From a virus (Duplodnaviria; Caudoviricetes), in IMG/VR virus record IMGVR_UViG_3300044716_000122, positions 31,046 to 95,045 of that record: a stretch of 64,000 nucleotides of DNA; one strand, given 5' to 3'. The position numbers and the translations under genes were made by a program. Under the pieces are notes generated by a model, which was not told where the DNA came from, did not search any database, and was given only the letters and a program-made list of their open reading frames with translations. Below are positions 19,886 to 61,903 of the stretch, piece by piece. The first letter of the stretch is position 1; every line of letters begins with the position of its first letter.

Positions 19886-22800
19886 GGATTGGTTTGGGTT
19901 ATTTGTATAGTATTGATAAACTTAAATCTAGAGTAAGCATCTTGTATAAGTCTTACTTTAGCAAAGTCTGATTTAATTTTATTCTTCTGATAGGAAACAG
20001 AAGTAGGTCTTACACTCTTAGTGTTTGGAACCTTATCAATTGGATACTGAGTTACTAGATCTCCCCACTGAGTAGACCAAAGTGGTTGTCCATTTCCTTG
20101 TGCTGCAACGTTCCAAAATCCATTAAAGGTATAAAGCTGTTCTCTGCGAGAGATAAGAGCTTCTATGCCCGTTGCTGTCATTCTAGGATAGGTTATCTTC
20201 TGTCTTGTGTTACCGAACTCTTCAGGAATCAATTTAATAATACCAGAAGACTGTTCTTTGTTATAGATAATCGCCTTAGTAAAGTTTGCTAAGTTCTTTT
20301 TATTTGCAGTAGACAAAGAGTAGTACTCGTAATCAGAGTAGTATTCTTGGATGTCTTGCATCAAAGTAACAGAGTTAACCGTAGATACCTGAGGGAATGA
20401 GTTTGCATTATATTCTAGTATGTAAGGATACAAAGTTCCGTAGTAAGTCTGGTAAGTAAATATAGACAAGTTATGATTCCAAGTAGTAGCACCTGCACTT
20501 GTATTAATAATAGTTTGGAAATGTCCTAACAAAGGAATAAAGAAGTTAGGAAGGAAAGAATAGAAAGAAATAAAGTTCTTAAGCTTAGGAGAGTATGCAA
20601 CTGTCCAAGACTTATTCTCGAAGTAAGTTGAATTAGTTAACTGAACTTCTGTAAAGATAGCCCCATCTTGGTAATAAAATTTACGATCCTCGAAAGTTAC
20701 TGTACCAGTAAGATCTTTTCTTACTCTGTAATCTAACTTAGTGATAAATACTCTTTCATATCTTTCATCCCAGCCCATTACAATACCTAATCCTGCTTGT
20801 GGAGTATCTATATCTACAGTAGGGAAGTCTTTAATTATTTGGAAAGGAAGATTGTTCTTAAACCAGTTAAAGTTATTCTCTGTTTTAATTTCATTAAATC
20901 CTTCTCCTGTGATCTGATAGATATGACCACGCTTAGCATCTACCCAGAATGTTCCATACTCACACTTAACATAAGCTCTGTGTTGAGTTCCTATGTAACC
21001 TAGATCTGTCTTAGAAAGATCTACAGGCTTTTGTTTAAACATCTCTGCATTACCAATCTCTAACTGATAAGGAGAAGTAGTGCTTAGAGTAATACGAGAG
21101 TTGTATACTTTAGTTGTATTCTCAAACCTAGCATATACTCTTTCGTTCTCTCCTGAGTTTAGATCTATTAAGCGACCTCCTTGCTTAGGAAAGTCATAGA
21201 AGTTTCCTGGACGGAATACTCTCCAAGCATCTGAAAGATAGTTAGAAGCATTGGCAGGGTCTGAATAGATTACTCTGTTTTGATGATAAGCCAAACATCC
21301 TAGTTCAGGATACTTTAATCTATAAGGAAGGTTAGGACTTAAGTTCTGTGCAGAGTAAGTAGCGTTGTAACTATAGAAATTGTCATACTTAATAGGTACG
21401 TTTACTTCATGCAACCAATCATCTGGAATACCTTCTCCTACATTAGGATAGAAGTTTTCTTCTAAGTCGTTTCTTCCATGACGTAAGTCTACATTAATAT
21501 CAGACTCTACATAGAATATAGGTATACCGTAAGAAGCTGTATAGAAATAACCTTCATGGGTAAGAGCTAGGTTAGGATTTCTTGCATCTAAATTTGTCTT
21601 AGGCAGGAAGTCATTAAATACAGAAGCAATGGTAGCAGCTAAAGCCTGATCTGCCAATATATCAAGAGCGATAGCAGGTACTGTAGCTCCAGGAATTAAT
21701 TTACCAAGTGCAGCTAAAAGTTTAGGAGCAAATGCTACTACTAAAGCTCCTGTTAAAGTGCCAACTATATCTCCTGTAGTAATAGGTTCAGAACTGTTTC
21801 CTACATAGTAAGTAGGATATCCAAGATTCGGGAATAACCAATAGTCAAAAGGAACATTATCTACCTTAGCAGGAAGATTAGCCAAGTTACGGGTGAAGAA
21901 AGAATGTTTACGCTTTAGTGCAAACTTATTAATGTAAGTATCTCCTCCAAATGCAGGATAATACTTTCTTTCAAGAGTATATACCCCACTAGAGTTTAAA
22001 TAAAACTTAGCTGAGTACCCAGTAGAAACATATTTAATGTTTTCTATAGCACCATATTGATTAGGAAAGTTTCTTTTAATAGAAGCATAGTACGCTCGTG
22101 TATTAGACTCTACTTCTTGTAAAGGATTGTCTTCCAGGTTTGCTTGCTTTATTGTAAAACGAGTAGTATCTTTAGATAAAGTAGGATTATGAATTGGAAA
22201 AGATCCACTTGTTTTTAAATAAACAGAAGTCTCCCTTAGTCTATTGTGAAGGGGAGCATCATCATTTAACTCTACAATTTTATCATTAGCGTAAAGTCCT
22301 ATATCTAAGAATCTTCTTTTATTGCCTGCATTAGGAATAGATTCGTACCGACTATATTTACCTACTGAATTGTATTGGTAAGCCATGTTTTTATTAGGAA
22401 CAATCTTTTCTAAAAGATCTCTCATAATACTCATATTACTGAGCATGCTTGTAATATCACTACGAGAAGTAACTGTGTTTCCTCCATCTAATAATGTAAC
22501 TTTTGTTTGAGATTCAATTACAGTAGCTAATGCTCCTGCTATAATTCCAATTAAACTATTTGCTGTACTATCTAAAAGCCTATACTGAGGATGATCTAGT
22601 ACAGGAACAAAGTGGCCCTTTACTTTACCATACTCTAAAGTTTCTAGTTTAAGTTCTGTTCCAATCTTAGGAAGTTGGAAGTGTGTATCAGGAGAATGAA
22701 ATATATACCTAGATCCAATAGTGTTGAATCCCTCATGCAACTGCATTCCAAAATCAGAATCATCAATTCCTCTATCTCCTTTATTATACCAGTCTGGAGT

Positions 22801-24750
22801 AGATTTAATATAAGCATCAGGACCTAAATCATTGTAAGGATAGTTAGGATAGTAAAACTTTTTATTTGATTTAACATCTTTAAAAGTTCCTACATCATAA
22901 ACAAGCCCCTTAGCTATGACTGATTTATTGTTTACACGATTACCTCTTACTAGCTCATAGCCACAGATTAATCCTTTAACAGGAATTAAGTTATTGCCTT
23001 GGGTGTTTAAAGGATCTTGAATAGAAGCAGTTTGTAATAATGCTTCTAGTTGAGTTTCATTAATACGTACTCCTATAGGATAGATTAAATCTTTATCATC
23101 TGCATGAATGTGATTTACAGCACTATCAGGAAACTTGTGGAATCTAATAGGCAGTCCTGCTAAGCTTCCCCATACTGATTCGTAACAAGGATAAGTTTCT
23201 GTAGACTCCCAATAAGCAAACTTTCCAGATTTACTTGATACAATCTTACAACTATACTGTTCTTCTTGTTTAGTAGGCGTATTAGTAGGGGGAACATATC
23301 CACTATCTGCTGTATTATATACTTCCCACTTAAAAGGATCTCTTCCAATAATGCAATCATTTTCTATTACAAACGAATCATTGTTTGTTGATTTCGGAAT
23401 AGTACTATTTTCTCCTGCAGCAGGATCAATTATTCTTCCAGGTATATGAAATACATCTGTATACTTTCCGTTCTGTAGTCTAAACTTAATACCAAAAGGA
23501 TAAACTTCATCTCTTTGGTATGTACGGAAGAAATAAGCAATCTCTGGGTTAGAGTAATCAAACTTATTATCTACAGGCATCTCTACAGTTTCCCACCTTA
23601 ACTCAATCTCATTGGCTAGGAGTTGGAAGTTATACTTAGGAGTCTCTGTAAGATCTGCAAGCATTAGAATATCAGTTTGCTTCTCAATGATTCCTGCATT
23701 ACTATAATGAGGGCTTCTAATTAAGGGAACAATAGATGAGAATGTAGAAGAGTAGTCTCCTGAGTAAGTTAAAGAATCTTTGTTTGTAGAAAGATTTACT
23801 CTATACGTACCTACCAGATGGTATGTAGTTACTTCATTTATGTTTTCAGCTACTACTAAGTTAAAGTAATCAAACAAAGTAGTACTATGTTCTATAGCAA
23901 CTCTGATAGATTTAGAAGTCTCGTATTCAGTTTGCTCTGTAATAGCACGTTCAAAGATTGGAAGAGGGTTACAGAAATCAATATAGTCTGTAAGTTCTTT
24001 TCCATTCTCATCTGAATAAGCAATTGAAAAAGAGTATACACCTCCCTTGAGTCTTCCTCCTGAATCTACTGAAGTCGGATAAATAACTGCTTGGCAAAAG
24101 TCTGGAAATAATTTTAGTCTGTCACAAGCTGTAGCCAAGTCAGGAATAGGAACCCCACACTGATCATTACCAAAAGGTTCTTCTAACCAGAAGTACTTAG
24201 GAGTAATGTTCTTACCAATAAAGTAAACTTTAGTTTTACAATCATCAATACGATACTCTGCAAATACAGGATAGTCTGGACTAAGTCCTAAACAACACTT
24301 ACCATTAGGGCAAGTATCATTCATAATAATATTAAAGCTACAACAATTTACACTATCTCCTGCTCCTTCTCCGTAGTATGCTTCTACAGTACTTGATACA
24401 ACTGTTCCAGAAATACAACCACAATCTGTTTCTGATTTAACTAATTGATTACAATCTTTGCTGAGGTTTATAACCTCACCTATCATAGACCTCCCATCAG
24501 GATGAGCTAGGAATACAAGTAACTTAGATTGTTCTGTAATATTTAAAACTCCGACAATCTTAAACCCAGGGAATGTAGAAGTAAAGTCAACACAGACTTG
24601 ATTGGAGGGCTCATTAGTATATGTAGTTGAATTACCATCGTGAGATTGAATGTTTGCGTTTAAAGCAAACGTAATCATATTCTCCTTTATCTGGTAGTTA
24701 ACTGAATCTAAATTTAACCCAGCAATGTTCTGATTGATTTTATTCTCCAT
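19882..24750 (-). CDS. Tail stabilisation/muzzle protein
   Basis: 1622 aa, beta-rich; GGDTYI, FWVDAKRG and SWTVAYS...FISFYSFLP motifs; expected position in the crAss tail module. Confidence 0.75.
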   Translation of the reverse strand: MENKINQNIAGLNLDSVNYQIKENMITFALNANIQSHDGNSTTYTNEPSNQVCVDFTSTFPGFKIVGVLNITEQSKLLVFLAHPDGRSMIGEVINLSKDCNQLVKSETDCGCISGTVVSSTVEAYYGEGAGDSVNCCSFNIIMNDTCPNGKCCLGLSPDYPVFAEYRIDDCKTKVYFIGKNITPKYFWLEEPFGNDQCGVPIPDLATACDRLKLFPDFCQAVIYPTSVDSGGRLKGGVYSFSIAYSDENGKELTDYIDFCNPLPIFERAITEQTEYETSKSIRVAIEHSTTLFDYFNLVVAENINEVTTYHLVGTYRVNLSTNKDSLTYSGDYSSTFSSIVPLIRSPHYSNAGIIEKQTDILMLADLTETPKYNFQLLANEIELRWETVEMPVDNKFDYSNPEIAYFFRTYQRDEVYPFGIKFRLQNGKYTDVFHIPGRIIDPAAGENSTIPKSTNNDSFVIENDCIIGRDPFKWEVYNTADSGYVPPTNTPTKQEEQYSCKIVSSKSGKFAYWESTETYPCYESVWGSLAGLPIRFHKFPDSAVNHIHADDKDLIYPIGVRINETQLEALLQTASIQDPLNTQGNNLIPVKGLICGYELVRGNRVNNKSVIAKGLVYDVGTFKDVKSNKKFYYPNYPYNDLGPDAYIKSTPDWYNKGDRGIDDSDFGMQLHEGFNTIGSRYIFHSPDTHFQLPKIGTELKLETLEYGKVKGHFVPVLDHPQYRLLDSTANSLIGIIAGALATVIESQTKVTLLDGGNTVTSRSDITSMLSNMSIMRDLLEKIVPNKNMAYQYNSVGKYSRYESIPNAGNKRRFLDIGLYANDKIVELNDDAPLHNRLRETSVYLKTSGSFPIHNPTLSKDTTRFTIKQANLEDNPLQEVESNTRAYYASIKRNFPNQYGAIENIKYVSTGYSAKFYLNSSGVYTLERKYYPAFGGDTYINKFALKRKHSFFTRNLANLPAKVDNVPFDYWLFPNLGYPTYYVGNSSEPITTGDIVGTLTGALVVAFAPKLLAALGKLIPGATVPAIALDILADQALAATIASVFNDFLPKTNLDARNPNLALTHEGYFYTASYGIPIFYVESDINVDLRHGRNDLEENFYPNVGEGIPDDWLHEVNVPIKYDNFYSYNATYSAQNLSPNLPYRLKYPELGCLAYHQNRVIYSDPANASNYLSDAWRVFRPGNFYDFPKQGGRLIDLNSGENERVYARFENTTKVYNSRITLSTTSPYQLEIGNAEMFKQKPVDLSKTDLGYIGTQHRAYVKCEYGTFWVDAKRGHIYQITGEGFNEIKTENNFNWFKNNLPFQIIKDFPTVDIDTPQAGLGIVMGWDERYERVFITKLDYRVRKDLTGTVTFEDRKFYYQDGAIFTEVQLTNSTYFENKSWTVAYSPKLKNFISFYSFLPNFFIPLLGHFQTIINTSAGATTWNHNLSIFTYQTYYGTLYPYILEYNANSFPQVSTVNSVTLMQDIQEYYSDYEYYSLSTANKKNLANFTKAIIYNKEQSSGIIKLIPEEFGNTRQKITYPRMTATGIEALISRREQLYTFNGFWNVAAQGNGQPLWSTQWGDLVTQYPIDKVPNTKSVRPTSVSYQKNKIKSDFAKVRLIQDAYSRFKFINTIQITQTNP

Positions 24751-39094: not shown

Positions 39095-41104
39095 TTAGTA
39101 TCGGAAGGGGGATGAGGTTGTACGGAACAAAGAGTTCCCTTTCTTTTCTCGGAAGTAAGCCTGGATTCTATTATCATCGTTTGAGTTAGAAATAATAACC
39201 TGAGTAGTAAGAGTCTTAGCCATAGCTAGAGTTAATCCAAATGAAATAACTCGGTCAACGTTTAACTTAGGGGTAAACTTAATTAACTCCTTAATCAAAA
39301 GAGGATCTAACATTCTGGTTACTCCTAGTCTTTCTTTTACAATAGCTCCATCTTCGTCTCTCTCTACTTCTATTACCTCGGTTATGTATTCGATAATAAG
39401 AGACATCAAATAGTTTTTAATGTCTTTAGTCATGTGAATACCATAGTCACGATTAACTGTAGAGTTAGGGTGAATGTCATTTAGGAACTTAGGCGTCTTC
39501 TCTAGAACCTTGGGAGATTCATTCTTGTCTACACAGTGCTGGATAAAACCATAGTCCATGTTTTCACAAAGAGTTTTAGCATTGTAATACTTAAGAAGCA
39601 TCTTAGTTATCTCATACCAAGTCTCAATCTTCTTAGGACGACCTGTGTAACAAGCTACAACTATATTCTGCCAACCTTCTCCGCTTAGATTGTGGACCCT
39701 CTTATAAATATAAGTAGAACCCAAAGAAGTTGAGTAGTGTGCCTGCGACTGTTTGTATGGATCCGTTCCTGCTGTATAAAGTCCATAGGGGGCTTCTGAC
39801 AGAGGATATTCCCAAATCTGAACACAACCCTCAATGGGATCTGTGGACTTAACAGGGAAGTTAATAACGGGCTTCTTGTCTGTAAACTTGTGTCTTATCT
39901 TTCCATCAGAGTTAATGTAGAGTTCTACATTGTCTGCTTGGATTTCTTGAGCACTTAATTTCTGTAGTTGTTCTTGAAGTAAGTCTACAGGAAATATGTT
40001 CTGAGATAGTTCTAAGAAACACTCTTCGTGATTCAAAGGATAGTACATTACTTCTTTTAAGTAAGCTTCTAAACCGTTTGATTTCTTAGTCTGTTCTCTA
40101 GACTTTAAGATAAGTTCTTTTCCTTTCTCTTCGTCTGCTACCCAAATCTTAATTATGTCTAACTCAGAAGGATCTTCTTTACCTAAGTAAAGTCCTAGGG
40201 GAGTTTCTTGCTTTGGAACTTTCAAAGAACGTGTACCTGGAATAAAGAGTCCATAAGACTTTCCTGTTTCATTAGACTCTACAGGAAGAAAGTTATAAGC
40301 TTCAGGATTGTTAAATAACTCTTCTAGGTCTGCTGCCTTAGTCATATCTCCAGAAGTTCCAATTACAAAAGGAGAACAACGCCAGCCATAAGGACTGTCA
40401 AAACAAGGAGTAGTTGCCGCTAAGCAAGAAAGGATCTTTCCTTTTCCTCCTTCTTCTAAAAGAAACGAAGATAGAGTAAGACCTGCCGCTGCTTCCGTAT
40501 TGTTGCCTTCATCAAAGTTTCTTACGTGGAACTTAGACCACTCATTACGAGAGTTAGTTCTCTTATCTTTAAATCCTAAAGTTACCTGTCTCTTCCAGTC
40601 ATCCTCAATACGAGGGAACCTAAAGTAGTCAGGAAGATTTCTAATACCTAAGTCTACGTAGTCTGTGATTACTTTTAAGTCAGGTTGGTTAAGCGCAGAT
40701 ATCAAGTTGTCAGAACCTTTCTGTGTAATGGCTTTGTGAGCCATATAAGAAGAAGTTAGAACTGACTTAGAGATACGTCTAGATCCTACCATCACAACTC
40801 CTTTCTTTCCGTCTATATGATTCTCTGCTTTATGGATAGTTTCATCTACTGCTAAGTAGGTATCCCAAAGCTGAGGTTTGTCTAGCTTTCTAATTTGACG
40901 CTTACCTACCATTGTATCTACATAAATAGACCAGTAGTTTAAATGCCAATAAATAAAAGGCGAGAAATAAAATCCATTAATAGTTACACCTTCTGTAATC
41001 TTTTTGTCTTCGTTCTCCCAAAATGCATCATACTCCTCTGAGCCAATCTCAGGGAAGGACTTAACATTAATAAAGAATTCTGGACTTTCTAGATTAGCGT
41101 GCAT
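39095..41104 (-). CDS. terL: Terminase large subunit
   Basis: Walker A-like GSRRISKS, Walker B FLLEEGG, nuclease motifs GTDPY and NVDRV. Confidence 0.9.
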   Translation of the reverse strand: MHANLESPEFFINVKSFPEIGSEEYDAFWENEDKKITEGVTINGFYFSPFIYWHLNYWSIYVDTMVGKRQIRKLDKPQLWDTYLAVDETIHKAENHIDGKKGVVMVGSRRISKSVLTSSYMAHKAITQKGSDNLISALNQPDLKVITDYVDLGIRNLPDYFRFPRIEDDWKRQVTLGFKDKRTNSRNEWSKFHVRNFDEGNNTEAAAGLTLSSFLLEEGGKGKILSCLAATTPCFDSPYGWRCSPFVIGTSGDMTKAADLEELFNNPEAYNFLPVESNETGKSYGLFIPGTRSLKVPKQETPLGLYLGKEDPSELDIIKIWVADEEKGKELILKSREQTKKSNGLEAYLKEVMYYPLNHEECFLELSQNIFPVDLLQEQLQKLSAQEIQADNVELYINSDGKIRHKFTDKKPVINFPVKSTDPIEGCVQIWEYPLSEAPYGLYTAGTDPYKQSQAHYSTSLGSTYIYKRVHNLSGEGWQNIVVACYTGRPKKIETWYEITKMLLKYYNAKTLCENMDYGFIQHCVDKNESPKVLEKTPKFLNDIHPNSTVNRDYGIHMTKDIKNYLMSLIIEYITEVIEVERDEDGAIVKERLGVTRMLDPLLIKELIKFTPKLNVDRVISFGLTLAMAKTLTTQVIISNSNDDNRIQAYFREKKGNSLFRTTSSPFRY

Positions 41105-42102: not shown

Positions 42103-42547
42103 ATAATTTCTGGTGGTTTAATATTTGTGTCTGATATGTTCTATCCATATACTCTATGGTTTGTTGGTTATAGAGTTTTTTAGATTGTCCTCTTTCGTAT
42201 CTTTCTTTAAATAGTCTAAGCCAATCTTCTAACATGTAGTAGTTAGCATAACCTCTGATTGCTGTGAGTCCTTGTCTTTCTGTCTCATAAGTTAATAGAT
42301 ACTCGGACTTAAGTTTCTTAGCTATTAGTTTGATTGCTCTAGAAGGATTAAAAACTAAAACTCCTAAGCCAGACAATCTAACTTTAACTGTAGGTAGCTC
42401 TACTATTTCCTCAATGGTTTTCTTTAAGTACCATTCGTATACAGTACTTACCTTATCAATAGTAAGACCCATTTCTTTTGCTACATCTGAATAGGCAGCA
42501 TAGGTCTTTATCTCAATGGTTTCGTATGTATCCTTTATTGAGGTCAT
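42002..42547 (-). CDS. IHF/HU-like protein
   Basis: Two N-terminal helices followed by VRLSGLGVL. Confidence 0.5.
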   Translation of the reverse strand: MTSIKDTYETIEIKTYAAYSDVAKEMGLTIDKVSTVYEWYLKKTIEEIVELPTVKVRLSGLGVLVFNPSRAIKLIAKKLKSEYLLTYETERQGLTAIRGYANYYMLEDWLRLFKERYERGQSKKLYNQQTIEYMDRTYQTQILNHQKLYESLQRVHGPEPEGAKEFEQSIGGSSNEDSESI

Positions 42548-42897
42548 GCAGTTGCTAAAGCTTCTTGCTTAAGAACAGGTTGATCTAAAGTAGAAAGAAC
42601 CAAAGTAAGTGTGACACCTTGCTTGCTAGTAGGACACAGTCTTGGGTTGACTGCATTCTTTTCTAAGATGCCCATCTTTCTTAACTTAGTTATTCCATTA
42701 GAAATAACTTGGATTGATGTGTCAAACTCACTGGCGATTCTTTCTTTTACTACTTTGTCTAAAGTACCGTAAAATGAACTATGGGCTAATATACTGGTGT
42801 ACAGGTCTGATAACCTATACCCCGCAAGTCTAAGTAATACATCAATGTATGCCTGATGCAACTTAACTCCTTCTTCGTATTTACGTGCTACTTTCAT
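42544..42897 (-). CDS. Winged helix-turn-helix protein
   Basis: IASEFDTSIQVISNGITKLRKMGIL; start moved to ATG 42897 (AAACCAACCAATG leader, promoter just upstream). Confidence 0.55.
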   Translation of the reverse strand: MKVARKYEEGVKLHQAYIDVLLRLAGYRLSDLYTSILAHSSFYGTLDKVVKERIASEFDTSIQVISNGITKLRKMGILEKNAVNPRLCPTSKQGVTLTLVLSTLDQPVLKQEALATA

Positions 42898-42921
42898 TGG
42901 TTGGTTTTGTTTTAACGTAAA

Positions 42922-42951
42922 CAAATATACTATCTTAACAAAAAAAGTCAA
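42922..42951 (-). promoter_or_regulatory. Bacteroidota sigma-A type promoter
   Basis: TTG-N19-TATATTTG. Confidence 0.7.
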
Positions 42952-43069
42952 GTTATATGTTAACTCAAAGAATACTTTTAACTTAAGATATTAACCGTGT
43001 TAACCCAACTCTTAACACCTATGGTTATTTTAGTGAAAAACTATGTCTAGACAAAAAATAATTAAAGAT

Positions 43070-43087
43070 TATATTTGTACAAGGAGG
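43070..43087 (+). promoter_or_regulatory. -7 promoter element and Shine-Dalgarno sequence
   Basis: TATATTTG at 43070-43077; AAGGAGG at 43081-43087, 7 nt before ATG 43095. Confidence 0.55.
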
Positions 43088-43094
43088 ATTTGTT

Positions 43095-43367
43095 ATGTCG
43101 ATGGATAAAATTAAAAAACCAAATGCCCAGGAAGTATTTGATATTTTCTTACTAGCACTCCAAGATGAGCAGGTAAAGCTAGAAGGAGATATAGGAGGAT
43201 TTAAATTAGCTCTCTATGATGGCTTTAAAGCATTCACTTATCGTAAAAAGTATAACGAAGAAATGCTTTTTGACTACATTGAAGAAGCATTAACAGAACT
43301 TTTAGATGAAGACCAACCTATGCAACAGACTGACTACATGCATGCTCAGAAGTCAGCAGGAATTTAA
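43095..43367 (+). CDS. Small acidic hypothetical protein (the only convincing plus-strand gene)
   Basis: 90 aa, lies in a region free of real minus-strand genes, has its own promoter element and SD. Confidence 0.7.
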   Translation: MSMDKIKKPNAQEVFDIFLLALQDEQVKLEGDIGGFKLALYDGFKAFTYRKKYNEEMLFDYIEEALTELLDEDQPMQQTDYMHAQKSAGI

Positions 43368-43397
43368 TCCCACAATTTATCCACAGAGCAAACAGTT

Positions 43398-43700
43398 GAC
43401 TACAAAATGTAGTTACCTTCGTAGTGACATCACATCTTTGTGTTCGCAGACGAGGATTTAAAAGTAATCTGCTAGAAGTTGGATTGTATGAGTAGCCCTC
43501 AGAGGTGAAAAGAGGTTTCTCCGATAGTGTCAAAATGTTCTAATAAAGTTTACAGTGCTCTAACCTACAACCAATAGACCGTAGGCAATAAGTGGACAGA
43601 ATAGAGACTTAGCTCTGAGGAGCTATTTGGTTAAAAACTGCTGTAATATAAGTTAGAATAGAAAGTCAAAATAGACTACTTCTCGGAGAGAGAAGGAACC
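43398..43700 (+). ncRNA. Candidate structured non-coding RNA
   Basis: Several long-range complementary segments whose non-Watson-Crick pairs are G-U on the plus strand (see findings); boundaries approximate. Confidence 0.55.
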
Positions 43701-43704
43701 TATC

Positions 43705-44151
43705 CTATTTTAAACTCTCAAACCCACTCTTAAACGACTTCTCTAAAGCTTTAGAATAAGCTTTTCTGTTATGAGGAATACCTTCTACAGAAACAAACAT
43801 AGCATTAACGTAAACTACTTTACTAGCTTCTCCTTGAAGAAGAATTCCATTTACGTTAATTTCTGTACTTACAATGTATTCTCGTTTAAGAAACTGTAAG
43901 CCTACAATATTTACAAGTTGTTCTGGCATTGCAATGGATTTGATTTTTCCTGAAATAGGACTGCCCTCATTACATAATTGGTACTTGGCTGAAGCAATCT
44001 CTTCTAGAGTAGTTTGTGCTCCAAAGATTATAGGTCTTCCTCCTATCTCTGTTACAGTAGCAATTGAGGTTACAGTGTCAATCTTATAGCATTGAGCACT
44101 CAGAGAAGTCATCATAGTGACTAAAGCGGAAAGTATAAATAGTTTTTTCAT
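43705..44151 (-). CDS. Exported protein with signal peptide
   Basis: MKKLFILSALVTMMTSLSA-Q signal, alpha/beta mature domain. Confidence 0.7.
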   Translation of the reverse strand: MKKLFILSALVTMMTSLSAQCYKIDTVTSIATVTEIGGRPIIFGAQTTLEEIASAKYQLCNEGSPISGKIKSIAMPEQLVNIVGLQFLKREYIVSTEINVNGILLQGEASKVVYVNAMFVSVEGIPHNRKAYSKALEKSFKSGFESLK

Positions 44152-44161
44152 AATTTAATAG

Positions 44162-45145
44162 TTAGTAGGTTACTGCTCCAGCATAACCAGGAGCTATTAT
44201 GTAGAGATTTAAAGTTCCTCCACTAGTTAAAGTAGAAGTTGTATGAGTGGAAACTCCAGGATAAGTTGCACGTACATTTGTAGTAGCCGCTTTAATTGCA
44301 TTGTATTGAGAAGTAGTAAAGATTCTTACGTCAGGAGCTGTTCTCCACTTAGAAAACCTTCCTGCTTTTCTTGCAGCCACATAATACTTGTCTGCTACTG
44401 AAAGTAATCCATCTTCATTTACATCATACATGTGAAAAGACAAACCATTTCTTGTAGTTTTTCCTAGTATAGTATTAGATACTCCTTGGATATCTGAGGT
44501 TGCATAAGCCTGGACTCTAGTAGGGGCAGCTATCTCTATGTAGTACTCCTTAGAAGGATCATAAGTCTCAGAAATAGAATAGTAACCCGAAGAGTTAGTA
44601 TAAATAGTTTTATAAAGGGTCCAAGAAGAAGTTGTTACTATGTAATCAAATTCTATAACATAAGCCAGACTACTACTATTGTTTAAATCATTCCACTTAC
44701 CGCTACCTACAAATTGAATGTAGTCTTCATTACCTGAGTTATTGGGTTCTCCTGAGTTCCAGTTTGTGTAAGAAAAAGTTTCTCCTGTTACCCATTTCCA
44801 AGTCCCCTCTGTTACTTCATCTGTTAGTCCTATCCAACCAGAAGGCCAAAGATTAAATAAGAAACTATTTTCACCTGAACTTGTAACTGTTACTAAATAA
44901 CCACCCATAGCAACACAGTTAGCTTTAGCTGTAGTCCAGTTAGCTGTTCCTGTAGAACGATAGTAAGAGTGCCCATTATAATTACTCTGAGAAGTAAATC
45001 CTGTTATAGTAGAATTTGTCCTTCTATATAGCTTTACAGCCACGTTGTTTGCACCAGATCCATTTGCATTATACAAGTATCCAGAATAAGTGAATTGTGC
45101 ACTCAGTGCGTTCACAAAGAAGAATAGAACAATAACCCACCTCAT
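44162..45145 (-). CDS. Exported C-type lectin plus dockerin-like protein
   Basis: Signal peptide ending LSA-Q; CTL motifs YNGHSYY, WIGLTD, WNSGEPNN and WND; Ca-loop DVNEDGLLSVAD. Confidence 0.8.
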   Translation of the reverse strand: MRWVIVLFFFVNALSAQFTYSGYLYNANGSGANNVAVKLYRRTNSTITGFTSQSNYNGHSYYRSTGTANWTTAKANCVAMGGYLVTVTSSGENSFLFNLWPSGWIGLTDEVTEGTWKWVTGETFSYTNWNSGEPNNSGNEDYIQFVGSGKWNDLNNSSSLAYVIEFDYIVTTSSWTLYKTIYTNSSGYYSISETYDPSKEYYIEIAAPTRVQAYATSDIQGVSNTILGKTTRNGLSFHMYDVNEDGLLSVADKYYVAARKAGRFSKWRTAPDVRIFTTSQYNAIKAATTNVRATYPGVSTHTTSTLTSGGTLNLYIIAPGYAGAVTY

Positions 45146-54592: not shown

Positions 54593-57500
54593 TTACTTGT
54601 TTTTTAATAGTTCTATCTCAGCCCTTAAAGCCTCGATCATTGTTTGTTGTTCTTTCATTGCTTCTACCAATAGAGGGATAACTTTAGTGTAAGCCAAGTT
54701 CTTGTATCCATCTTCTTGAGTAGTAACCGCTTCTGGAAGTACTGCCTCAACATCTTGAGCAATAAGACCTACATCATGTGTGCCTACGTGCTCACCTGAG
54801 TTCCAATCAAACTCTACACCACGTAGAGATTTAATCTTTTCTACAGGAGTAGTAATAGGAGTGAGGTTATCCTTAAGTCTAGAATCTGAAGGCTGAACAA
54901 CTGTGTAGTCAAAAATTACTTGGTTTAAGCCTCTTGGAACGTAGAACATTCTTGAGTCTGTACTGTTCTCTGCAATACGTCTGAATTCAATGTCTTGACC
55001 TCCTGCATCTCCAGTAAGAAGTATCTTAAATGTTTTCCAACTAGAATCTGCTTGACCTCTCAATAAGAAGTAAGTCAAAGGATCTTGGTTATACCCTACG
55101 TTAGAGTGAACTTGTAAACCTGTTCCATTACTTCCAGCAACAGTACAAGTATTACCTACTTGGTTTACTACAGTTTTCCAAGCACTCCAGCTACCATTAT
55201 ATCCAGATCTATAAGCCAAAGCTCTGTATGCACCTCCAGTATTAGCAACATCTTCAGGGAAGTACATTTGCATCAAAGGACCTCCAGTTTCACCATAAGA
55301 TAAAACAGTACCATAACCATAAGAATCACTAGGTCTATTAGCTCCAGTGTGACCTAATGCATTAGATACAATTAACTTAGCAGTAATAAAATAGCTATTC
55401 CAATCTTGACCATAGATATCTCCAAACTTAGTAAGCTGTTGTGATATTGTAGCGTAACTTACAGATTGGCTAGCGATGTTTCCTGTATTAATTGCTCCAG
55501 ATACAGTTTGATAAGTACCACTAGATTCATAGGCCATAGACCCTAATCCTAATTGAGACTTAACGTGAGCAACACTAGACTTCCTTAACCATCCATCTCC
55601 ATTACTTGTATAGAATGAGTTGATAGTTGGGTTCTCTGTTTCAGATACGTTTGAGTTAATGTAATGAGCATAGATGTAGTTGTTAGCATCTCTAATAACC
55701 ACTGTGTTTGCACCTACACTACCAGAAGGAGCATATCCACCTACAGTGGCAGCGCTACCCGTAGTATTCTGATTCCAAGTAGGAACTGTTCCAGTTAATC
55801 CTGAATAAGCCACGTTGGTGGCTGTTGCTGCATTACCTGATACCGAAATACTCCATGTACCACTTGCCCCAGTACCCGTTAGTGTAGGAGAATAACTTGT
55901 GTAATTAACTGAAGTTAAAATATCACAAAAAGCTCCCCAAGTACTATCAATACCTTTTCTTAATCTTAAGCCAGGATTTCCAGAACCATTAACACCTGTT
56001 TGATTAACAAATGCTAACTGATAAGAAGAATCTCCTGTAGAGGAAGTTGTGCCATCCCAAGGATTAAATTGTAATAAACCTGCATAGTTACCTACAGCAC
56101 CTACACTTCCTGCTCCTACAAATGAAAATCTAAATGATCTAGCTGATGTTGTAGGATAGTGATTTGCACTACCTGGATTTCTGTCGTCATCATTATAAGA
56201 GTACCAACCTCCTGTATTAGCTAAGCCAGCAAAAGTAGGAGAGTTACCTGTACCTACACTCTGGTTAATGGTGTATGCTGTAATGTTACTAGCTGTTCCT
56301 GAGATACTAGCACTTGATGTAATATAACCACTTGGGTTTGTAGCATTGTACGGAGTAAAGCCTAATGCTGTGGTTACGTTACCTGAGTTAATTCCTGTAA
56401 TATAACCAGAGTTATTCGTAAACTGAGAAATGTTCATGCTAGTTAAAACACCTGCTTCATCAGCATATCCAGCAGCTGCTTTTGTCCAACTTCCCCAACT
56501 ACCACCTTCTTGTGTTCTATAATAAGTATACTTACGAGCATGATCTCTTGCTACAGCAGTCATTAATCCATAAGTACCATATGCATAATCATTGCCTAGA
56601 CCTTGTGTCTGTACATAGTATTGAGAACCTGATTGTGGAGTATCGTTAGCAGTAGAGCCTTGCATAAACCAAACACCAAAGTTTGGAATTGCTCCAAATG
56701 TTTGATACGTGCTATGTCCTTGTCCACTGTTATTCCAAAGTTGTATTTTGCTCAAGCCATTAAGCTGAGCTGAATTAGTTACTGATTGGCTTCCAATGTT
56801 AGCAGTTGTAATTGCATCTGTAATTCCATAACCACTAATTGTAGTTGGCTTAGATGAAACGTTTGCAAATGAAATACCTGTAATATACCCACTAGGATTT
56901 GTACTATTGTATGGGGTAAATCCAAGAGAAGCCTGCTTACTATCAAGAGCTGTTTGTAATCCTGTTACATCTGATATAGCGTGAGTATGTGCAGTAATAG
57001 AAGTTAAAAATCCTCCATAGTTACCTAGATCGTTTGTAAATTGAGACAAGGCAGTAGGACGAGAACTTACGTTAGTCCATGCTACTGATCCAGCAGATCC
57101 AGTAACACTAATGCTCCAAGTTCCTGAAGCACCTGTTCCTGCAAGAGACGGAGAGTAAGCTGTATAGTTTGCATCGTTAAGTAGTACTCTCCAAGGGTTA
57201 AATGAACCAGCATCGCCATTTCTTGTTCTAAAGGCAATACCTGTTCCACTACCACTATAGGCAGCGTTAAGTTGTAATGAGTATCCTGGTTCACTAAATC
57301 TAGCAATAGGTCCTGTATATGGAGCATTTACTGAATATGTAAATCCTGTAGAGTTAGCGTCCATTGTATTAGCATCAAGAGTAAATCCTTGATAATACAT
57401 TACATAAGACGGTTTACTTGATACATTACCCCATGCTACTGCATTTGCTGTACCTGCTGTTGTTGCGTAAGACACGGATTGACTTCCAATATTAGAAGTA

Positions 57501-60500
57501 GTAATTAATCCTAAATTAGAAATAAAAGTAGCAGGTGTTTGAAATCTTACATAGTCATCATCCGAACAATATATCTTGGTTATAGCAGAAGAGAATACTC
57601 CAGAAGGAGTATTAATCCATCCTGCTTGAATATATCCATTTGCATCAGTTCTAACAATTTTATTTGCTTCGTTATTTCTACTACTATGAACAGCTAATCC
57701 TCCTGCTGTGGATGCATTACTTACTGACTGAGACCCAATGTTACCTGTATTAATTGCAGATGCAATTGGTTGAGCCCAAGAAGAATAGTTAGATGAGTCT
57801 AGTACAGTTGCTTGAGCTCCAGCGCCATATGCATTTTTGTGACAATATAATGTACCACTTTCCCAATAGAACTGCCATCCATAGGCGTTGTTGTGAAATC
57901 CAGTTGTGTTAGAGGTTGGATTTACCATCAATGATACGTTTCCATTTGATGCATTAAACTCAATTCCGTTCCATCCATTTCTAGTGCCAGTAACTAGCCA
58001 GGGACCATAACTTCCATCATTAGGTCTTAAATGAGCACCATTTGTTGGAGAGTATAATCCATAAATACCATTAAGTTGAATCCAACTTTCAGGAATTAAA
58101 TAACCACTTCCATTTCTAGTAGGAATAGTATTAGCACTAGCTCCTACAGATACACTATATCCTCCTACAGTAGAGGAGTTACCTCCATTAGCTGGAGCAG
58201 AACCTGCTGTAGTGGCATAAGTAGCAGTAGCAGCATTACCGCTAATATTTGTCTGGTCACCTGTATTTGTACCACTTAAATTTGATGCAGACAATGTTCC
58301 TGCAAAATATCCATTACCTGTGCTAAGACCAATATATGCTCGTAATCCATTTGCTCCACCTCCAATAAAACCAATTGAATTACCTTCCATACCACCAACA
58401 GCAGAATCAATTTGCCTATGGTAAATACCCCAGTTTGAACCAGTGTCTGCACTATCTAGATAAATCCAAGAGTCTCTATCGTTTGGTTGACTGTATAAAA
58501 ATACGTTTGAAGAAGGGTTAACTGTTGTAAAACTATTAAGAATTAAACTGTTATTACCTCTATATCTTTCTGCAGTAATAGAAGAACTTGTAGTAGATCC
58601 TCTTCCAGTAACAGTAGCCAATGTATCTGTTTCTGTATATCCTGTAATATAACCAGAGTTATTTGTGAATTGAGAGATGTTCATTGAAGTTAACGCACCC
58701 GATGTAGTAGCATAACTTACAGATTGTGAACCTATATTACTTGTAGTAATTGCAGTTGAAGCAGCTTGATAGCCAGCACTTGCATGATTTCCCCACCCAT
58801 AAGCTGTATTCCATTGTGTGGAATCTCCATAACCAGAAGAGTAAATTACAGCTGCTATAAAGTTTTCATACGATCCCCCTGGGTTATTTCTAATAGCCAT
58901 TCTACCACTAGATTCCATCATGATACTAGAAGCAACAACACCCCCCCAATGGAATGCTAACTGAGGTGCATATATTTCGTTTGTATTTCCACTTCCTCCA
59001 CTATTCTCTCTTACTTGATAATTCGTTGTATAAGATGTTCCTGTTGAAGTACTTTGGATAGTACCAAGCCCAGAAAGATTTGTAGCATTACCAGCACTTC
59101 CTGAACTGCCAGTTACATTAATACTCCAAGTACCACTGTTATAAACATAATCGGTATTATTTGAGTGTTTTAATCTTCCACCATATATGTAAACAGTTCC
59201 ACCACCATTGCCAAAGTACATATCCCCACTTGAGTAATGATTAAAATACATTTGATAAACATTACCTGCTCCACCTCTAGTGTCTATATGTAGATTACCG
59301 TTAGAAGTTCTTATACGAGCATATGTTGTATCTGTTGACCAACCACCAAGATGTAAAGCCGCAGCAGCATTATATGAGCTAGCTCCATAAACTATTAATG
59401 CAGCAGCATCCCCATTTACAATTGTATTTGTAACATTTGTATAAACTCCATTAGTCACACTACCCGCACTACCACTAATACTTCCTGATGATGTAATATA
59501 TCCACTAGGATTACTAGAGTTATAAGGAGTATATCCTAAAGCACCTGTTACTTGTCCTGATGTTATTCCTGTTAAGTATCCTGCACTAGCGTGGTTACCC
59601 CAACCAAATGCGGTATTCCAGTTAGAGGATGTTCCATAAGAAGTTGTAGTAATAAGTCCTGAAGTCCAGATACCTGAACCAATAGCTGTTTGGGTAACAC
59701 CATTATCCATGAATAAAGCCTGATGCCCTAAGCCAGATTTAGATTGTCCTCCTACATTTGTATGTGTCCATGCAATACCATAAAGATTTCCAGTAGTTGT
59801 ACCATTAGCAGCCAACTTATAAGAGTCCCCCATTGCAAATACACCTTGGTATCTCTCAGCAGAATAAAGACCTACAAGACCATTACCATAGTTTCCATCT
59901 GTGTAAACATTACTATAAGAACGTAGTGTGTCAGCATTAACAGTAACTAATCTAGAAGTACTATTAGGATCTAAATAATAATTTGTATCCTGTGAATCAT
60001 AAAAAATTGGCGCTCTCATTTGAGAGGCTGCATCTACACGATATAAATTACTAGTACTATTAGGATCTAAATAGTAACTAGTATTATTTGAATCATAAAA
60101 AATAGTACCATAAAAAGCACCACTCTTTTCTATTTTAGTATTTCCAATTGTTTTGTCATAAATAGGATAATCAGTATCTACTCCAACAAATAAATTTGCA
60201 AGAAAAATTGTATCACCACTAGCATTGTAATCGGTTAAGAATCCTAATTTAGCAGAAGCTGTACCTGGAGGAAACTTACCTCCAGCATTTGTACCACTAT
60301 AATCTACACCGTCCATTATACCTACATAGTTTGTCCATGTAGTTGGTACAATAGTGTATCCCAAAGCAATGTACTTATATGTACCACCTGCACTACCATT
60401 ACTTAACTTAGTACCAGAAGCAATAGAAGGACCATTCCAAGGACTAATCAGAGTAATAGTATTAGTGGCGTAGTTAACAGCTCCAGGATCCCATCTTCCT

Positions 60501-61903
60501 CCGTACCAGTTTTGAGAATAAGTTTCTGGGGGATAAGCATATCCAAATGAGTTAACATAGTTCCAGAATATAAATGATCTGATGTGGGTAGATACTCCTG
60601 CTGTTCCCCCATTTTCCCAGTTAGCAGCACTAGTTAAGTAAACAACTGTATCCCCAGGGTTAAGAGTTTGTGCCAACGTAGTAAGAGTGTTAGCATAATA
60701 CATATGAGTAACTGCAGTAATTGTATTACCATCTACATCAAAAAAGTTTAAATAAGCATAATATGCACCTTGTCCATTTGTAGTTCTTGCCCAAAAATCT
60801 AAACGATATCTTTTCTCTGGATTGACAGGCATTAACTCATCAGTATTTGGAGCTTGGTATTGTCCAGTATATCTAAATGATCCACTTGAGAAATACGCTT
60901 GACTACCATCAAATGTAAATGAAGTAAAGTTTGTGTTGTTACCCATCAAACCTGTTCCATTACTAAGTAAGTTTTCTCCTCTAGACCAGATATACTTCTT
61001 CATAGTATCTAGACTATAGCCTCCTAAAGCACCTGCACCCGTAGCATAATTTACACTTAATGAACTGGCTGTTCCTGTTAACCCTGCTCCTGATCCAATA
61101 AATTGAGATGCTGTATGTGTTCCTACAGAAGAGAAGTTTCCATTACCAAACATTGAATGTTTTATACTCCAATTAGATGAATCAACTCCATCTGAAGCAT
61201 AATAATGTTGTATGGTTCCACTTGCATCCATGTGTCTCAACCACATACTGTCAGAAACAGTATTTCTAAATTGCATTGAAGGATACTGTCCTCTAATGTT
61301 TATAGCTCCTTGGTTAATCCCAGCATTAGCCCAGTTATTATTTAGTCGAATATGACTAAGTACTGAAAGTCCATTAGGATCAAGGTAATATCCAGTATCA
61401 TTAGAATCGTAAAAAATAGGTGCTCTTAGAGATTCGTTATTTTGAAGATAACCACCATTGTCCATTAGAACATTAGCACCACTAAATCTCATCTGCCAAG
61501 TGTTATTACCACCAATATACAACTCATCACCAGCCCCAGCTTTTATCATAGAAGCATTTGTTCCAGCTGATGTAAGTGTTATAATAGAAGACGCATTTAC
61601 GTTAAATGTTGCGGTAGTTAATACACTATTACCATTGGGGTCAAGGTAATAACTAGTATCTGCGGAATCGTAAAAAATTGGAGCACGCATATCAGAGGTA
61701 CTCTGAATGCCAACATTAGAGTTTATACGAGCACCATCCCAGTTTAGATAATTGTTTCCGCCTCCAAAATATATTGCATTACCAATATTAATATTAGTAG
61801 GACCAATGGTTGCAGGTATACTTGTTAAAGCATAACTCCCAATGTTACTTGTTGTGATTACGGCATTTCCGCCTACTGTGGTATTTATTAATAAATTAGC
61901 CAT
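54593..61903 (-). CDS. Long tail fibre with C-terminal intramolecular chaperone (peptidase S74)
   Basis: 2436 aa, G/S/T/N-rich with internal repeats; SDSRLKDN...GLIAQDVE.VLPEAV followed by a coiled coil. Confidence 0.88.
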   Translation of the reverse strand: MANLLINTTVGGNAVITTSNIGSYALTSIPATIGPTNINIGNAIYFGGGNNYLNWDGARINSNVGIQSTSDMRAPIFYDSADTSYYLDPNGNSVLTTATFNVNASSIITLTSAGTNASMIKAGAGDELYIGGNNTWQMRFSGANVLMDNGGYLQNNESLRAPIFYDSNDTGYYLDPNGLSVLSHIRLNNNWANAGINQGAINIRGQYPSMQFRNTVSDSMWLRHMDASGTIQHYYASDGVDSSNWSIKHSMFGNGNFSSVGTHTASQFIGSGAGLTGTASSLSVNYATGAGALGGYSLDTMKKYIWSRGENLLSNGTGLMGNNTNFTSFTFDGSQAYFSSGSFRYTGQYQAPNTDELMPVNPEKRYRLDFWARTTNGQGAYYAYLNFFDVDGNTITAVTHMYYANTLTTLAQTLNPGDTVVYLTSAANWENGGTAGVSTHIRSFIFWNYVNSFGYAYPPETYSQNWYGGRWDPGAVNYATNTITLISPWNGPSIASGTKLSNGSAGGTYKYIALGYTIVPTTWTNYVGIMDGVDYSGTNAGGKFPPGTASAKLGFLTDYNASGDTIFLANLFVGVDTDYPIYDKTIGNTKIEKSGAFYGTIFYDSNNTSYYLDPNSTSNLYRVDAASQMRAPIFYDSQDTNYYLDPNSTSRLVTVNADTLRSYSNVYTDGNYGNGLVGLYSAERYQGVFAMGDSYKLAANGTTTGNLYGIAWTHTNVGGQSKSGLGHQALFMDNGVTQTAIGSGIWTSGLITTTSYGTSSNWNTAFGWGNHASAGYLTGITSGQVTGALGYTPYNSSNPSGYITSSGSISGSAGSVTNGVYTNVTNTIVNGDAAALIVYGASSYNAAAALHLGGWSTDTTYARIRTSNGNLHIDTRGGAGNVYQMYFNHYSSGDMYFGNGGGTVYIYGGRLKHSNNTDYVYNSGTWSINVTGSSGSAGNATNLSGLGTIQSTSTGTSYTTNYQVRENSGGSGNTNEIYAPQLAFHWGGVVASSIMMESSGRMAIRNNPGGSYENFIAAVIYSSGYGDSTQWNTAYGWGNHASAGYQAASTAITTSNIGSQSVSYATTSGALTSMNISQFTNNSGYITGYTETDTLATVTGRGSTTSSSITAERYRGNNSLILNSFTTVNPSSNVFLYSQPNDRDSWIYLDSADTGSNWGIYHRQIDSAVGGMEGNSIGFIGGGANGLRAYIGLSTGNGYFAGTLSASNLSGTNTGDQTNISGNAATATYATTAGSAPANGGNSSTVGGYSVSVGASANTIPTRNGSGYLIPESWIQLNGIYGLYSPTNGAHLRPNDGSYGPWLVTGTRNGWNGIEFNASNGNVSLMVNPTSNTTGFHNNAYGWQFYWESGTLYCHKNAYGAGAQATVLDSSNYSSWAQPIASAINTGNIGSQSVSNASTAGGLAVHSSRNNEANKIVRTDANGYIQAGWINTPSGVFSSAITKIYCSDDDYVRFQTPATFISNLGLITTSNIGSQSVSYATTAGTANAVAWGNVSSKPSYVMYYQGFTLDANTMDANSTGFTYSVNAPYTGPIARFSEPGYSLQLNAAYSGSGTGIAFRTRNGDAGSFNPWRVLLNDANYTAYSPSLAGTGASGTWSISVTGSAGSVAWTNVSSRPTALSQFTNDLGNYGGFLTSITAHTHAISDVTGLQTALDSKQASLGFTPYNSTNPSGYITGISFANVSSKPTTISGYGITDAITTANIGSQSVTNSAQLNGLSKIQLWNNSGQGHSTYQTFGAIPNFGVWFMQGSTANDTPQSGSQYYVQTQGLGNDYAYGTYGLMTAVARDHARKYTYYRTQEGGSWGSWTKAAAGYADEAGVLTSMNISQFTNNSGYITGINSGNVTTALGFTPYNATNPSGYITSSASISGTASNITAYTINQSVGTGNSPTFAGLANTGGWYSYNDDDRNPGSANHYPTTSARSFRFSFVGAGSVGAVGNYAGLLQFNPWDGTTSSTGDSSYQLAFVNQTGVNGSGNPGLRLRKGIDSTWGAFCDILTSVNYTSYSPTLTGTGASGTWSISVSGNAATATNVAYSGLTGTVPTWNQNTTGSAATVGGYAPSGSVGANTVVIRDANNYIYAHYINSNVSETENPTINSFYTSNGDGWLRKSSVAHVKSQLGLGSMAYESSGTYQTVSGAINTGNIASQSVSYATISQQLTKFGDIYGQDWNSYFITAKLIVSNALGHTGANRPSDSYGYGTVLSYGETGGPLMQMYFPEDVANTGGAYRALAYRSGYNGSWSAWKTVVNQVGNTCTVAGSNGTGLQVHSNVGYNQDPLTYFLLRGQADSSWKTFKILLTGDAGGQDIEFRRIAENSTDSRMFYVPRGLNQVIFDYTVVQPSDSRLKDNLTPITTPVEKIKSLRGVEFDWNSGEHVGTHDVGLIAQDVEAVLPEAVTTQEDGYKNLAYTKVIPLLVEAMKEQQTMIEALRAEIELLKNK

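Follow-up and report, generated by a model that had tools for sequence, protein, structure and literature searches.

Whether an intergenic gap between two convergent phage genes holds nothing beyond the ends of its neighbors, or an RNA gene of its own, is the question raised by a 337-nt region of IMG/VR record IMGVR_UViG_3300044716_000122. The stretch of DNA analyzed (64,000 nucleotides, hereafter the window) corresponds to positions 31046-95045 of one phage contig, 95,045 bp in length. The gap lies at 43368-43704 of the window, between the gene of an acidic 90-amino-acid (aa) protein, p90, encoded in the same orientation as the RNA and immediately upstream of it (43095-43367, plus strand), and the stop of a gene for a 148-aa protein, which runs on the minus strand and ends at 43705. 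A sequence-only reading had proposed that the gap encodes a structured plus-strand non-coding RNA (ncRNA) of ~280-300 nt, and the strong covariation and the excess of G-U pairs observed among relatives bear this out. The comparisons described below establish that the gene exists and is dispensable, as well as its strand, fold and distribution, and a free-standing structured-ncRNA gene is the explanation of the gap that we favor as a whole, with slightly better than even confidence.

A conserved four-way junction with a lineage-specific 3' domain

Relatives, referred to below by locus numbers (L), were gathered from several sources. A search of IMG/VR with the 148-aa protein, whose gene lies outside the RNA and served as a handle for fetching relatives, yielded 24 loci, 18 of which hold p90 and the gap at 78-98.5% DNA identity and six of which lack both; in L022 a 183-nt part of the gap retains 78% identity even though the 148-aa protein is down to 54%. 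An invariant 16-mer found 61 loci in IMG/VR, comprising 41 true members as judged by nhmmer and 20 chance matches lacking the second motif. Searched across genomes from 185,579 species, a two-block pattern occurs in one contig (3.6 kb, from a metagenome-assembled genome); it is also found in at least 80 marine and freshwater metagenome loci. A relaxed pattern gave 11 further loci. The family is present in more than 100 phage and metagenome loci, and the 76 distinct 5' domains that were pooled fall into 22 clusters at 85% identity. Pairing was assessed in A2 (25 sequences of the 5' domain, aligned by MAFFT and unfitted), A3 (the 76 distinct 5' domains, aligned and thereby fitted to covariance model R1), A4 (20 distinct 3' domains, MAFFT) and A9 (10 distinct relaxed-pattern sequences, fitted to the model). 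Searched with R1, the 95-kb genome contains a single copy of the RNA.

The conserved core of the family is the 5' domain (43426-43531, plus strand; ~106 nt in the window and 105-147 nt across the family), which folds into a four-way junction supported by covariation. It is closed by P1 (GACAU/GUGUC, 43426-30/43527-31), the outer pairs of which covary, followed by P2 (CACA/UGUG, 43431-34/43439-42), assigned by comparative analysis, and P3 (GCAGA/UCUGC, 43446-50/43468-72), in which all five pairs covary in A3. The near-invariant P4 (GUUGGA/UCCGAU, 43478-83/43520-25) encloses the variable P5 arm (43484-43519, plus strand). P1, P2 and P3 change freely by compensatory substitution; the junction strands and the P4 flanks are near-invariant (YAGAAGUYGGAU ... 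UUUCUCCGAUAGUG).

In A3, 97.5% of the cells are paired as compared to 78.6% in shuffled alignments, double changes occur at 11 of the 20 pairs (274 cells), and the covariation score of 0.512 (0.160 in shuffles) was reached by none of 500 shuffles; with partners slid out of register, 24-47% of the cells pair. The unfitted A2 has 95.6% of its cells paired and double changes at nine of the 20 pairs, matched by none of 500 shuffles, with 22-49% of the cells pairing in the slid controls. Every cell of A9 is paired (100%), and here the closing pair of P4 is G-C in seven and A-U in three of the ten sequences. P4 is invariant in the A2 and A3 sets, and the change of its closing pair from A-U to G-C surfaced in the looser pattern and in a sample retrieved by TerL, the large terminase subunit, which is the sole member set independent of fixed-letter patterns. 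The internal loop between P4 and P5 exists as either GUAUGAG...AAAAGAGG or GUGAGAG...AAAUUGGU, the two strands changing in concert, and these versions are found in otherwise different backgrounds (A2 columns 110-160; L004, L013, L040, L043, L055, L057 and L059 as compared to the window). This two-version loop is either a covarying non-Watson-Crick motif or a 35-nt recombination tract.

The 3' domain (43532-43660, plus strand) is a branched rod specific to the lineage of the window, with 98% of the cells paired and double changes at 15 of 22 pairs in A4; taking A3 and A4 together, 26 of 42 helix pairs covary. The rod is built of Ra (GTTCTAAT/GTTAGAAT, 43536-44/43652-60) and Rb (TTACAGT/GCTGTAA, 43550-56/43640-46), the latter with double changes at three of seven pairs, and ends in a three-way branch formed by the helix Hc (CUCUA/UAGAG, 43558-62/43602-06; five of five pairs covary), with Hd inside it (CCUAC/GUAGG, 43564-68/43581-85; two of five), and by the hairpin He (43610-15/43620-25; five of five). 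Ra was judged by eye and left uncounted, as MAFFT places it out of register, and each lineage has its own complementary version of it. The joining strands of the domain, including GGCAAUAAGUGGACAGAA, are conserved, and He carries GNRA-type loops in several lineages. A 12-nt insertion in He of L012, L013 and L111 (columns 219-230 of alignment A1) duplicates part of the hairpin and lengthens it with the pairing intact.

The window-type 3' motif is present in 27 of the 76 distinct sequences, and the remaining ones that are long enough carry other extensions. That of the L086 group is different but again rod-like; as seen by eye, L121 has a terminator-like hairpin and a U run ~40 nt after P1, and L122 an intrinsic-terminator-like hairpin with U7 ~300 nt from P1. 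Because the 3' extensions differ among lineages, it is the 5' junction that defines the family. The RNA measures ~235-275 nt in the window and ~190-350 nt across the family. Beyond the rod lies a terminal hairpin (CUUCUC-loop-GAGAAG, 43679-43695) whose stem is kept while its loop varies. It scores as terminator-like on the minus strand only, so that it may terminate the convergent 148-aa gene, and it may be the end of the RNA as well.

All the complementary stretches listed by the sequence-only reading are present where it had placed them, and the long rod that it drew from them survives in part. Its helices TTACAGT/GCTGTAA and GTTCTAAT/GTTAGAAT (there 43537-44/43652-59) are the Rb and Ra described above; its outer part is replaced by the four-way junction followed by a separate branched rod. 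For TTTCTCCGA/TCGGAGAGA and the outer half of AGTGTC/GAC(T)ACT, 76% of the cells are paired and no pair covaries; the 3' arm of the former is the variable loop of the terminal hairpin, and the GUGUC of the latter pairs instead with GACAU at 43426-30 in P1. The proposed TAACC/GGTTA pairing overlaps the covarying Hc and Hd. A 14-bp helix crossing the rod is paired in 91% of the cells among 14 near relatives with only one pair covarying, and its 3' arm forms He. When this helix is scored along with TTTCTCCGA/TCGGAGAGA and AGTGTC/GAC(T)ACT, 85.6% of the cells are paired with one covarying pair, which equals the shuffles. Thus, the pseudoknot or switch that had been built on the 14-bp helix is without comparative support, though an alternative fold of this kind is possible within the clade of near relatives. 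Of the two small 5' hairpins in the same drawing, 43446-72 is P3, and 43398-414 lies upstream of the promoter box and outside the RNA.

Strand, promoter and transcription

The RNA is encoded on the plus strand. G-U cells outnumber A-C cells by 150 to 10 in A3 and by 25 to 3 in A4, in agreement with the orientation read earlier from the G-U pairs of the single sequence, and RNAalifold gives -15.7 for the plus strand of A2 as compared to -6.8 for the minus strand. A near-consensus -7 box of the form TAnnTTCG, TACCTTCG (43414-43421, plus strand), ends 4 nt before P1 in a register that is fixed among relatives and is predicted to be the RNA's own promoter; TAnnTTTG is the Bacteroidota -7 consensus (PMC7366714). 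Boxes of the form TAnnTT[TC]G ending 4-9 nt before P1 are present in 39 of 64 distinct upstream regions (34 with strict TAnnTTTG and five with TTCG) against a chance expectation of ~0.012 per region, and the T, A, T, T and G of the box are invariant in A1. In several members TATAAT-like boxes, recognized by eye, stand in place of the Bacteroidota-type box, which suggests hosts from other phyla. The hairpin at 43398-414, which follows the p90 stop and precedes the -7 box of the RNA, differs in sequence but is again a hairpin in several relatives (L011, L012 and L016) and may terminate the p90 gene.

Since the longest open plus-strand frame has 31 codons and relatives differ by 1-nt indels, the region is non-coding. 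Small parts of the window are present in four metatranscriptome runs, and stretches without coverage are uninformative. A 459-nt contig of run X22 covers 43428-43865, and the p90 gene is covered by other contigs. The end of the 459-nt contig lies 2 nt from the predicted start of the RNA, and adaptor sequence follows its other end; a single contig of this kind establishes neither start nor strand.

These data can be set against the simplest reading of the gap, namely that there is no RNA gene and that the region is composed only of the terminators of two convergent genes or is a DNA-level site such as a packaging (pac) site or an origin. The location between convergent genes, the minus-strand terminator score of the last hairpin and an unremarkable single-sequence folding energy are all compatible with it. 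However, covariation of helix pairs in both domains, the large excess of G-U over A-C cells, a promoter box in fixed register and a core conserved across unrelated contexts would not be expected of such a site, nor is there any repeat or GC-skew feature at this position. We consider this alternative very unlikely, the least credible of those weighed here.

Comparison with known RNAs

Searches of Rfam 15 at the gathering threshold found no match in the whole window. With E values up to 10, six matches were obtained in 42900-43800, the best scoring 18.3 bits against a threshold of 60, one in 43420-43540 (10.7 bits against a threshold of 80), and five in the relative L083, all well short of threshold and without any plus-strand match spanning the RNA. 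The family is thus absent from Rfam. ARAGORN found no tRNA or tmRNA genes in the window or in the 95-kb genome, and the earlier reading, which had not recognized the RNA as tRNA, tmRNA or (here by Rfam) RNase P, holds. A blastn search of 50,697 phage records revealed no carrier, though short conserved blocks could escape blastn; its one match, of 24 nt at E = 5, is taken as chance.

Some further identities were considered and set aside. Short words in the RNA, presumably shared with RNase P, 5S rRNA and the sarcin-ricin loop, gave no Rfam match, and a pairing resembling P4 of RNase P, noticed by eye, is not conserved in L070 and L041. The minus-strand gene at 44162-45145, two genes upstream of the RNA on that strand, encodes a 327-aa protein that contains a C-type lectin domain (Pfam Lectin_C, E 2.7e-16, residues 68-163). 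The idea of a diversity-generating retroelement template repeat was raised because this gene adjoins; no repeat family includes 43368-43704, a reverse transcriptase not having been specifically searched for. The extremes of the cumulative GC skew fall at genome positions 20302 and 94923, away from the RNA, which does not favor an origin or terminus; a replication role, suggested earlier, finds no evidence, the GC skew being featureless at the RNA site.

The closest kinds of RNA are GOLLD, ROOL and the RNAs of the T4 tRNA region, and the present RNA is a member of none of them. GOLLD and ROOL are likewise phage-encoded, fold independently and have many covarying helices; they are often near tRNA islands, their function is unknown, and GOLLD has one conserved and one variable half (10.1101/2024.12.08.627333). 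Some members of the present family also lie in or beside tRNA arrays. However, neither Rfam model matches, GOLLD and ROOL span ~580-800 nt or more, the present RNA is smaller by a factor of 2-3 and has one four-way junction as its core, and most of its members are not beside tRNAs. RNAC and RNAD of T4 are small stable RNAs from a tRNA gene cluster with unknown roles (PMC3014915); compared by description and not by sequence, they share the placement of the RNA in L048 and L122, whereas the phage of the window has no tRNA genes. The topology of the 5' domain is reminiscent of tRNA itself, with a closing stem, a 4-bp arm, a 5-bp arm, a 5-nt joiner, a fourth arm and a closing strand, and some members are co-located with tRNA genes, but the T-loop and anticodon-loop geometry and the CCA end are lacking, the arms carry large internal loops, and the domain is 105-147 nt long.

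A prediction of 10,006 candidate structured RNAs from IMG/VR by Fremin, Bhatt and Kyrpides (2023; PMC10690425) includes 14 candidates consistently upstream of a putative large terminase, and the present family may be among these candidates. The main text of that article appears to describe no RNA of this architecture, and we found no prior description in the literature searched, though the supplementary tables of PMC10690425 may list the RNA.

Distribution and genomic context

Among relatives with TerL of at least 75% identity, 32 of the 35 crAss-like loci that could be assessed carry the RNA ~2.3 kb upstream of TerL (L186 is too short). The slot is kept in the L030/L110 lineage, although its TerL is only 24% identical to that of the window. 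The RNA of L035 is 190 nt away from TerS, in a terminase system unrelated to that of the window (phrog_83 and phrog_9), and the RNA of L051 precedes by 2.3 kb a TerL of a third, again unrelated, family (phrog_2). Such placements are what would be expected of a packaging or assembly RNA like the pRNA of phi29, one made beside the terminase operon, docking on the portal or the terminase motor and needed for packaging. The two RNAs are indeed alike in being stable structured phage RNAs with their own promoter, many present members standing beside packaging genes.

However, L190-L192 lack the RNA at the usual site, and over the whole contigs of L190-L192, L017 and L024 it is absent, two of these five being rated 100% complete; a weak R1 match in L017-L020 (16 bits) is without P1 and lies inside an ORF, and was rejected. 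The RNA is thus accessory, since complete relatives do without it, and an essential motor part should be indispensable. The nearest isolate by TerL (39.8%), Leptolyngbya phage Lbo-JY46 (L087; GenBank PP438436.1), has at 215-4180, just before its terminase operon and in the slot of the window RNA, 14 tRNA genes and a homing endonuclease, and R1 finds no match in this locus. Other members occupy tRNA arrays or neighbor genes for primase, integrase or structural proteins, and no terminase was found near L109, L130, L105, L147 and L119; adjacency to terminase holds for crAss-like members, L035 and L051 and was rejected as a general rule. Further, there is no Rfam pRNA match, no interlocking-loop pairs were identified, and the carriers have ordinary TerL (one also has TerS) instead of phi29-type ATPases. 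A packaging RNA, which the sequence-only reading had offered among its suggestions, is weakened by the complete relatives without it and by its non-packaging contexts, and we regard it as unlikely.

The remaining contexts are diverse. The RNA of L048 stands at the end of a co-oriented tRNA array (19 tRNAs in the locus), that of L122 before tRNA-Met and tRNA-Thr, and those of L096, L112 and L130 (L086 group) near a convergent tRNA-Leu; in L105 it is near primase and integrase and in L147 near an HNH endonuclease and integrase. In L048 a 115-aa ORF (5352-5699, minus strand) has a stop codon overlapping the first base of P1, a position that recalls p90, with which the p90 hidden Markov model (HMM) finds no similarity. 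tRNA genes are present in 10 of the 67 loci scanned; three of these 67 loci lack the RNA, and L189 and L216 are one contig. Adjacency to tRNA genes, seen in a minority of loci, was likewise rejected as a general rule.

The downstream side bears on whether the element acts in cis, either as a riboswitch-like leader or as a promoter with a structured leader driving antisense transcription into the convergent gene. A conserved junction with covarying stems does resemble an aptamer, co-oriented genes begin ~180-270 nt after the 5' domain in L051 and L109, and the X22 contig extends 160 nt into the antisense of the 148-aa gene. But in the window and throughout the crAss-like members the RNA is followed by a convergent gene, which leaves no downstream target, the downstream neighbors vary by lineage, and L122 ends by eye in the terminator-like hairpin with U7 noted above. 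Membership among riboswitches or cis leaders was rejected on these grounds of convergent and unconserved neighbors, and a cis element of either kind is in our estimate quite improbable.

On the upstream side, p90 has no Pfam, PHROG, Atlas or named match. Its homologues, which show 27-46% identity between subgroups and fall in 88 clusters that are all unnamed or 'hypothetical', are confined to part of the crAss-like group. The earlier suggestion that the RNA is a subunit of a complex with p90, perhaps a counter-defence pair, draws on the fact that the homologues, where present, are always directly upstream and co-oriented, with the stop codon 39-77 nt before P1, and on the joint loss of p90 and RNA in L017-L021 and L024. 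Against this, most RNA lineages lack p90: a scan with its HMM of 35 loci from other lineages (including L035, L048, L051, L071, L086, L105 and L122) detected no homologue, and the group of L041, L070 and L083 has no gene between the RNA and the divergent operon. An acidic protein would also seem ill-suited to RNA binding. An obligatory partnership in a ribonucleoprotein is therefore unlikely, and a p90 complex appears to us less probable even than a cis element.

Genomic setting in the window

The genes of the 95-kb genome occupy the plus strand over the first ~20.3 kb and the minus strand over the remainder. There are 13 plus-strand ORFs of at least 80 aa in the window, and 12 of these are inside or overlap longer minus-strand ORFs; the exception is p90, and its earlier description as the only plus-strand gene is in this sense correct. 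A Bacteroidota-type -7 box, TATATTTG (43070-43077, plus strand; consensus TAnnTTTG from PMC7366714), is located 17 nt before the p90 ATG and is a putative promoter. Divergent from p90 is p135 (ORF of ~117-135 aa, 42544-42951, minus strand), the first gene of an operon leading to terminase and portal, and its synteny with the RNA is seen among relatives. p135 is probably a winged-helix DNA-binding protein: nine of its 16 homologues have sub-threshold HTH_Crp_2 matches, all of its helix-turn-helix (HTH) signals being sub-threshold, and neighboring Atlas clusters carry HTH domains. Its true start is probably residue 19, at 42897, because Atlas holds the protein from residue 19 onward. A second TATATTTG box is the reverse complement of 42922-29, 24 nt upstream of this start, and the boxes at 42922-29 (minus strand) and 43070-77 (plus strand) point apart, forming a divergent promoter pair ~140 nt apart.

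As noted earlier from the sequence, the packaging genes lie downstream in the divergent operon: terminase (39095-41104; phrog_6681, E 2e-98) and portal (phrog_6547, E 2e-104) are encoded on the minus strand to the left of p90. The window TerL shares 39.8% identity with its counterpart in Leptolyngbya phage Lbo-JY46 and 28-31% with the TerL proteins of Cellulophaga and crAss-like phages, and the phage is therefore a distant crAss-like relative. DNA sequencing runs in which the stretch occurs carry the label lake water. The convergent 148-aa gene (43705-44151, minus strand) has no assigned function. Elsewhere in the window there are giant minus-strand ORFs at 1-12165, 54593-61903 and 19882-24750; in the full genome an ORF of 4,349 aa adjoins one of 1,926 aa, and others encode 2,436 aa, with several internal direct-repeat families (D1-D8), and 1,622 aa.

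A proposed trans-acting RNA and its possible roles

The gene behaves as an accessory, horizontally moving cassette composed of its own promoter, the RNA and a hairpin. We propose that host RNA polymerase would start at the Bacteroidota-type -7 box at 43414-21 and that the transcript would begin at or beside P1 (43426) and continue for ~235-275 nt, as far as the rod's end or the terminal hairpin. The 5' four-way junction would be the working part; the 3' rod, confined to the lineage of the window and replaced in other lineages by other extensions or by nearly none, would give stability and termination. The RNA may then accumulate as a stable particle and act in trans, its invariant junction serving to dock a partner that different hosts have conserved. 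Candidates would include part of the translation or tRNA machinery and a conserved factor of defence or RNA processing. P4 and its surrounding strands are near-invariant even between phages with terminases of only 24% identity or of different families. This invariance across unrelated neighbors and apparently different hosts implies a partner or a chemistry that is independent of the particular phage. That the RNA is a stable trans-acting molecule whose junction binds a widely conserved partner is a tentative proposal, to which we give appreciable but less than even credence.

If the invariance reflects chemistry, the junction could be the catalytic core of a ribozyme acting on itself or on another RNA such as tRNA. 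Long near-invariant unpaired and junction stretches beside freely covarying helices, the GNRA-type loops on He in several lineages, conservation that is independent of host phylum as judged by promoter types, and the proximity of some members to tRNA genes are all in line with such an activity. Nevertheless, no Rfam ribozyme family was matched and no conserved cleavage or ligation site is identifiable, and a ribozyme seems distinctly unlikely, slightly more so than a packaging RNA.

Several observations weigh against the free-standing trans-acting gene that we prefer. A3 and A9 are fitted to the model, which biases them toward pairing, and the invariance of P4 and its flanks is partly one of ascertainment, as most members were retrieved by patterns that fix those letters. 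Folding energy, which the sequence-only reading had named as a check, divides: the whole gap has a minimum free energy of -82.1 kcal/mol on the plus strand (z -2.07; three of 100 shuffles fold as well) as compared to z -0.45 on the minus strand, but the RNA proper (43426-43700) has z -0.64, with 46 of 200 shuffles folding as well, and the minimum-energy fold contains the 14-bp helix, unlike the comparatively supported one. The metatranscriptome evidence consists of assembled contigs from libraries that possibly contain DNA and gives no strand or ends. Finally, in crAss-like phages the synteny with the terminase operon has long been conserved, which also fits a packaging or late-gene role.

A more far-reaching possibility is that the invariant four-way junction is the active center of a new class of functional RNA spread by phages across several bacterial phyla, in which case the lineage-specific 3' rods would be interchangeable scaffolds. 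Such an RNA might work as a ribozyme on tRNA or other RNA, or it might capture a universal cell component, either as a decoy for an enzyme of defence or RNA processing or as a multimeric particle like those of ROOL and GOLLD; with all these variants considered jointly, we hold it to be improbable but not remote, below the tentative docking proposal. Large intricate RNAs with near-invariant junctions are rare and have repeatedly proved to be ribozymes, sensors or unusual assemblies.

The family is compact, strongly supported by covariation and abundant in lake and ocean viromes, and neither Rfam nor the cultured phage genomes searched contain it. It crosses phage lineages with barely related or unrelated terminases and, by promoter types, seemingly host phyla too. 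With a defined start, a ~106-nt core and natural variants, there is sufficient information for its synthesis, and the genomes of crAss-like phages gain a stable RNA gene at the head of their late operon.

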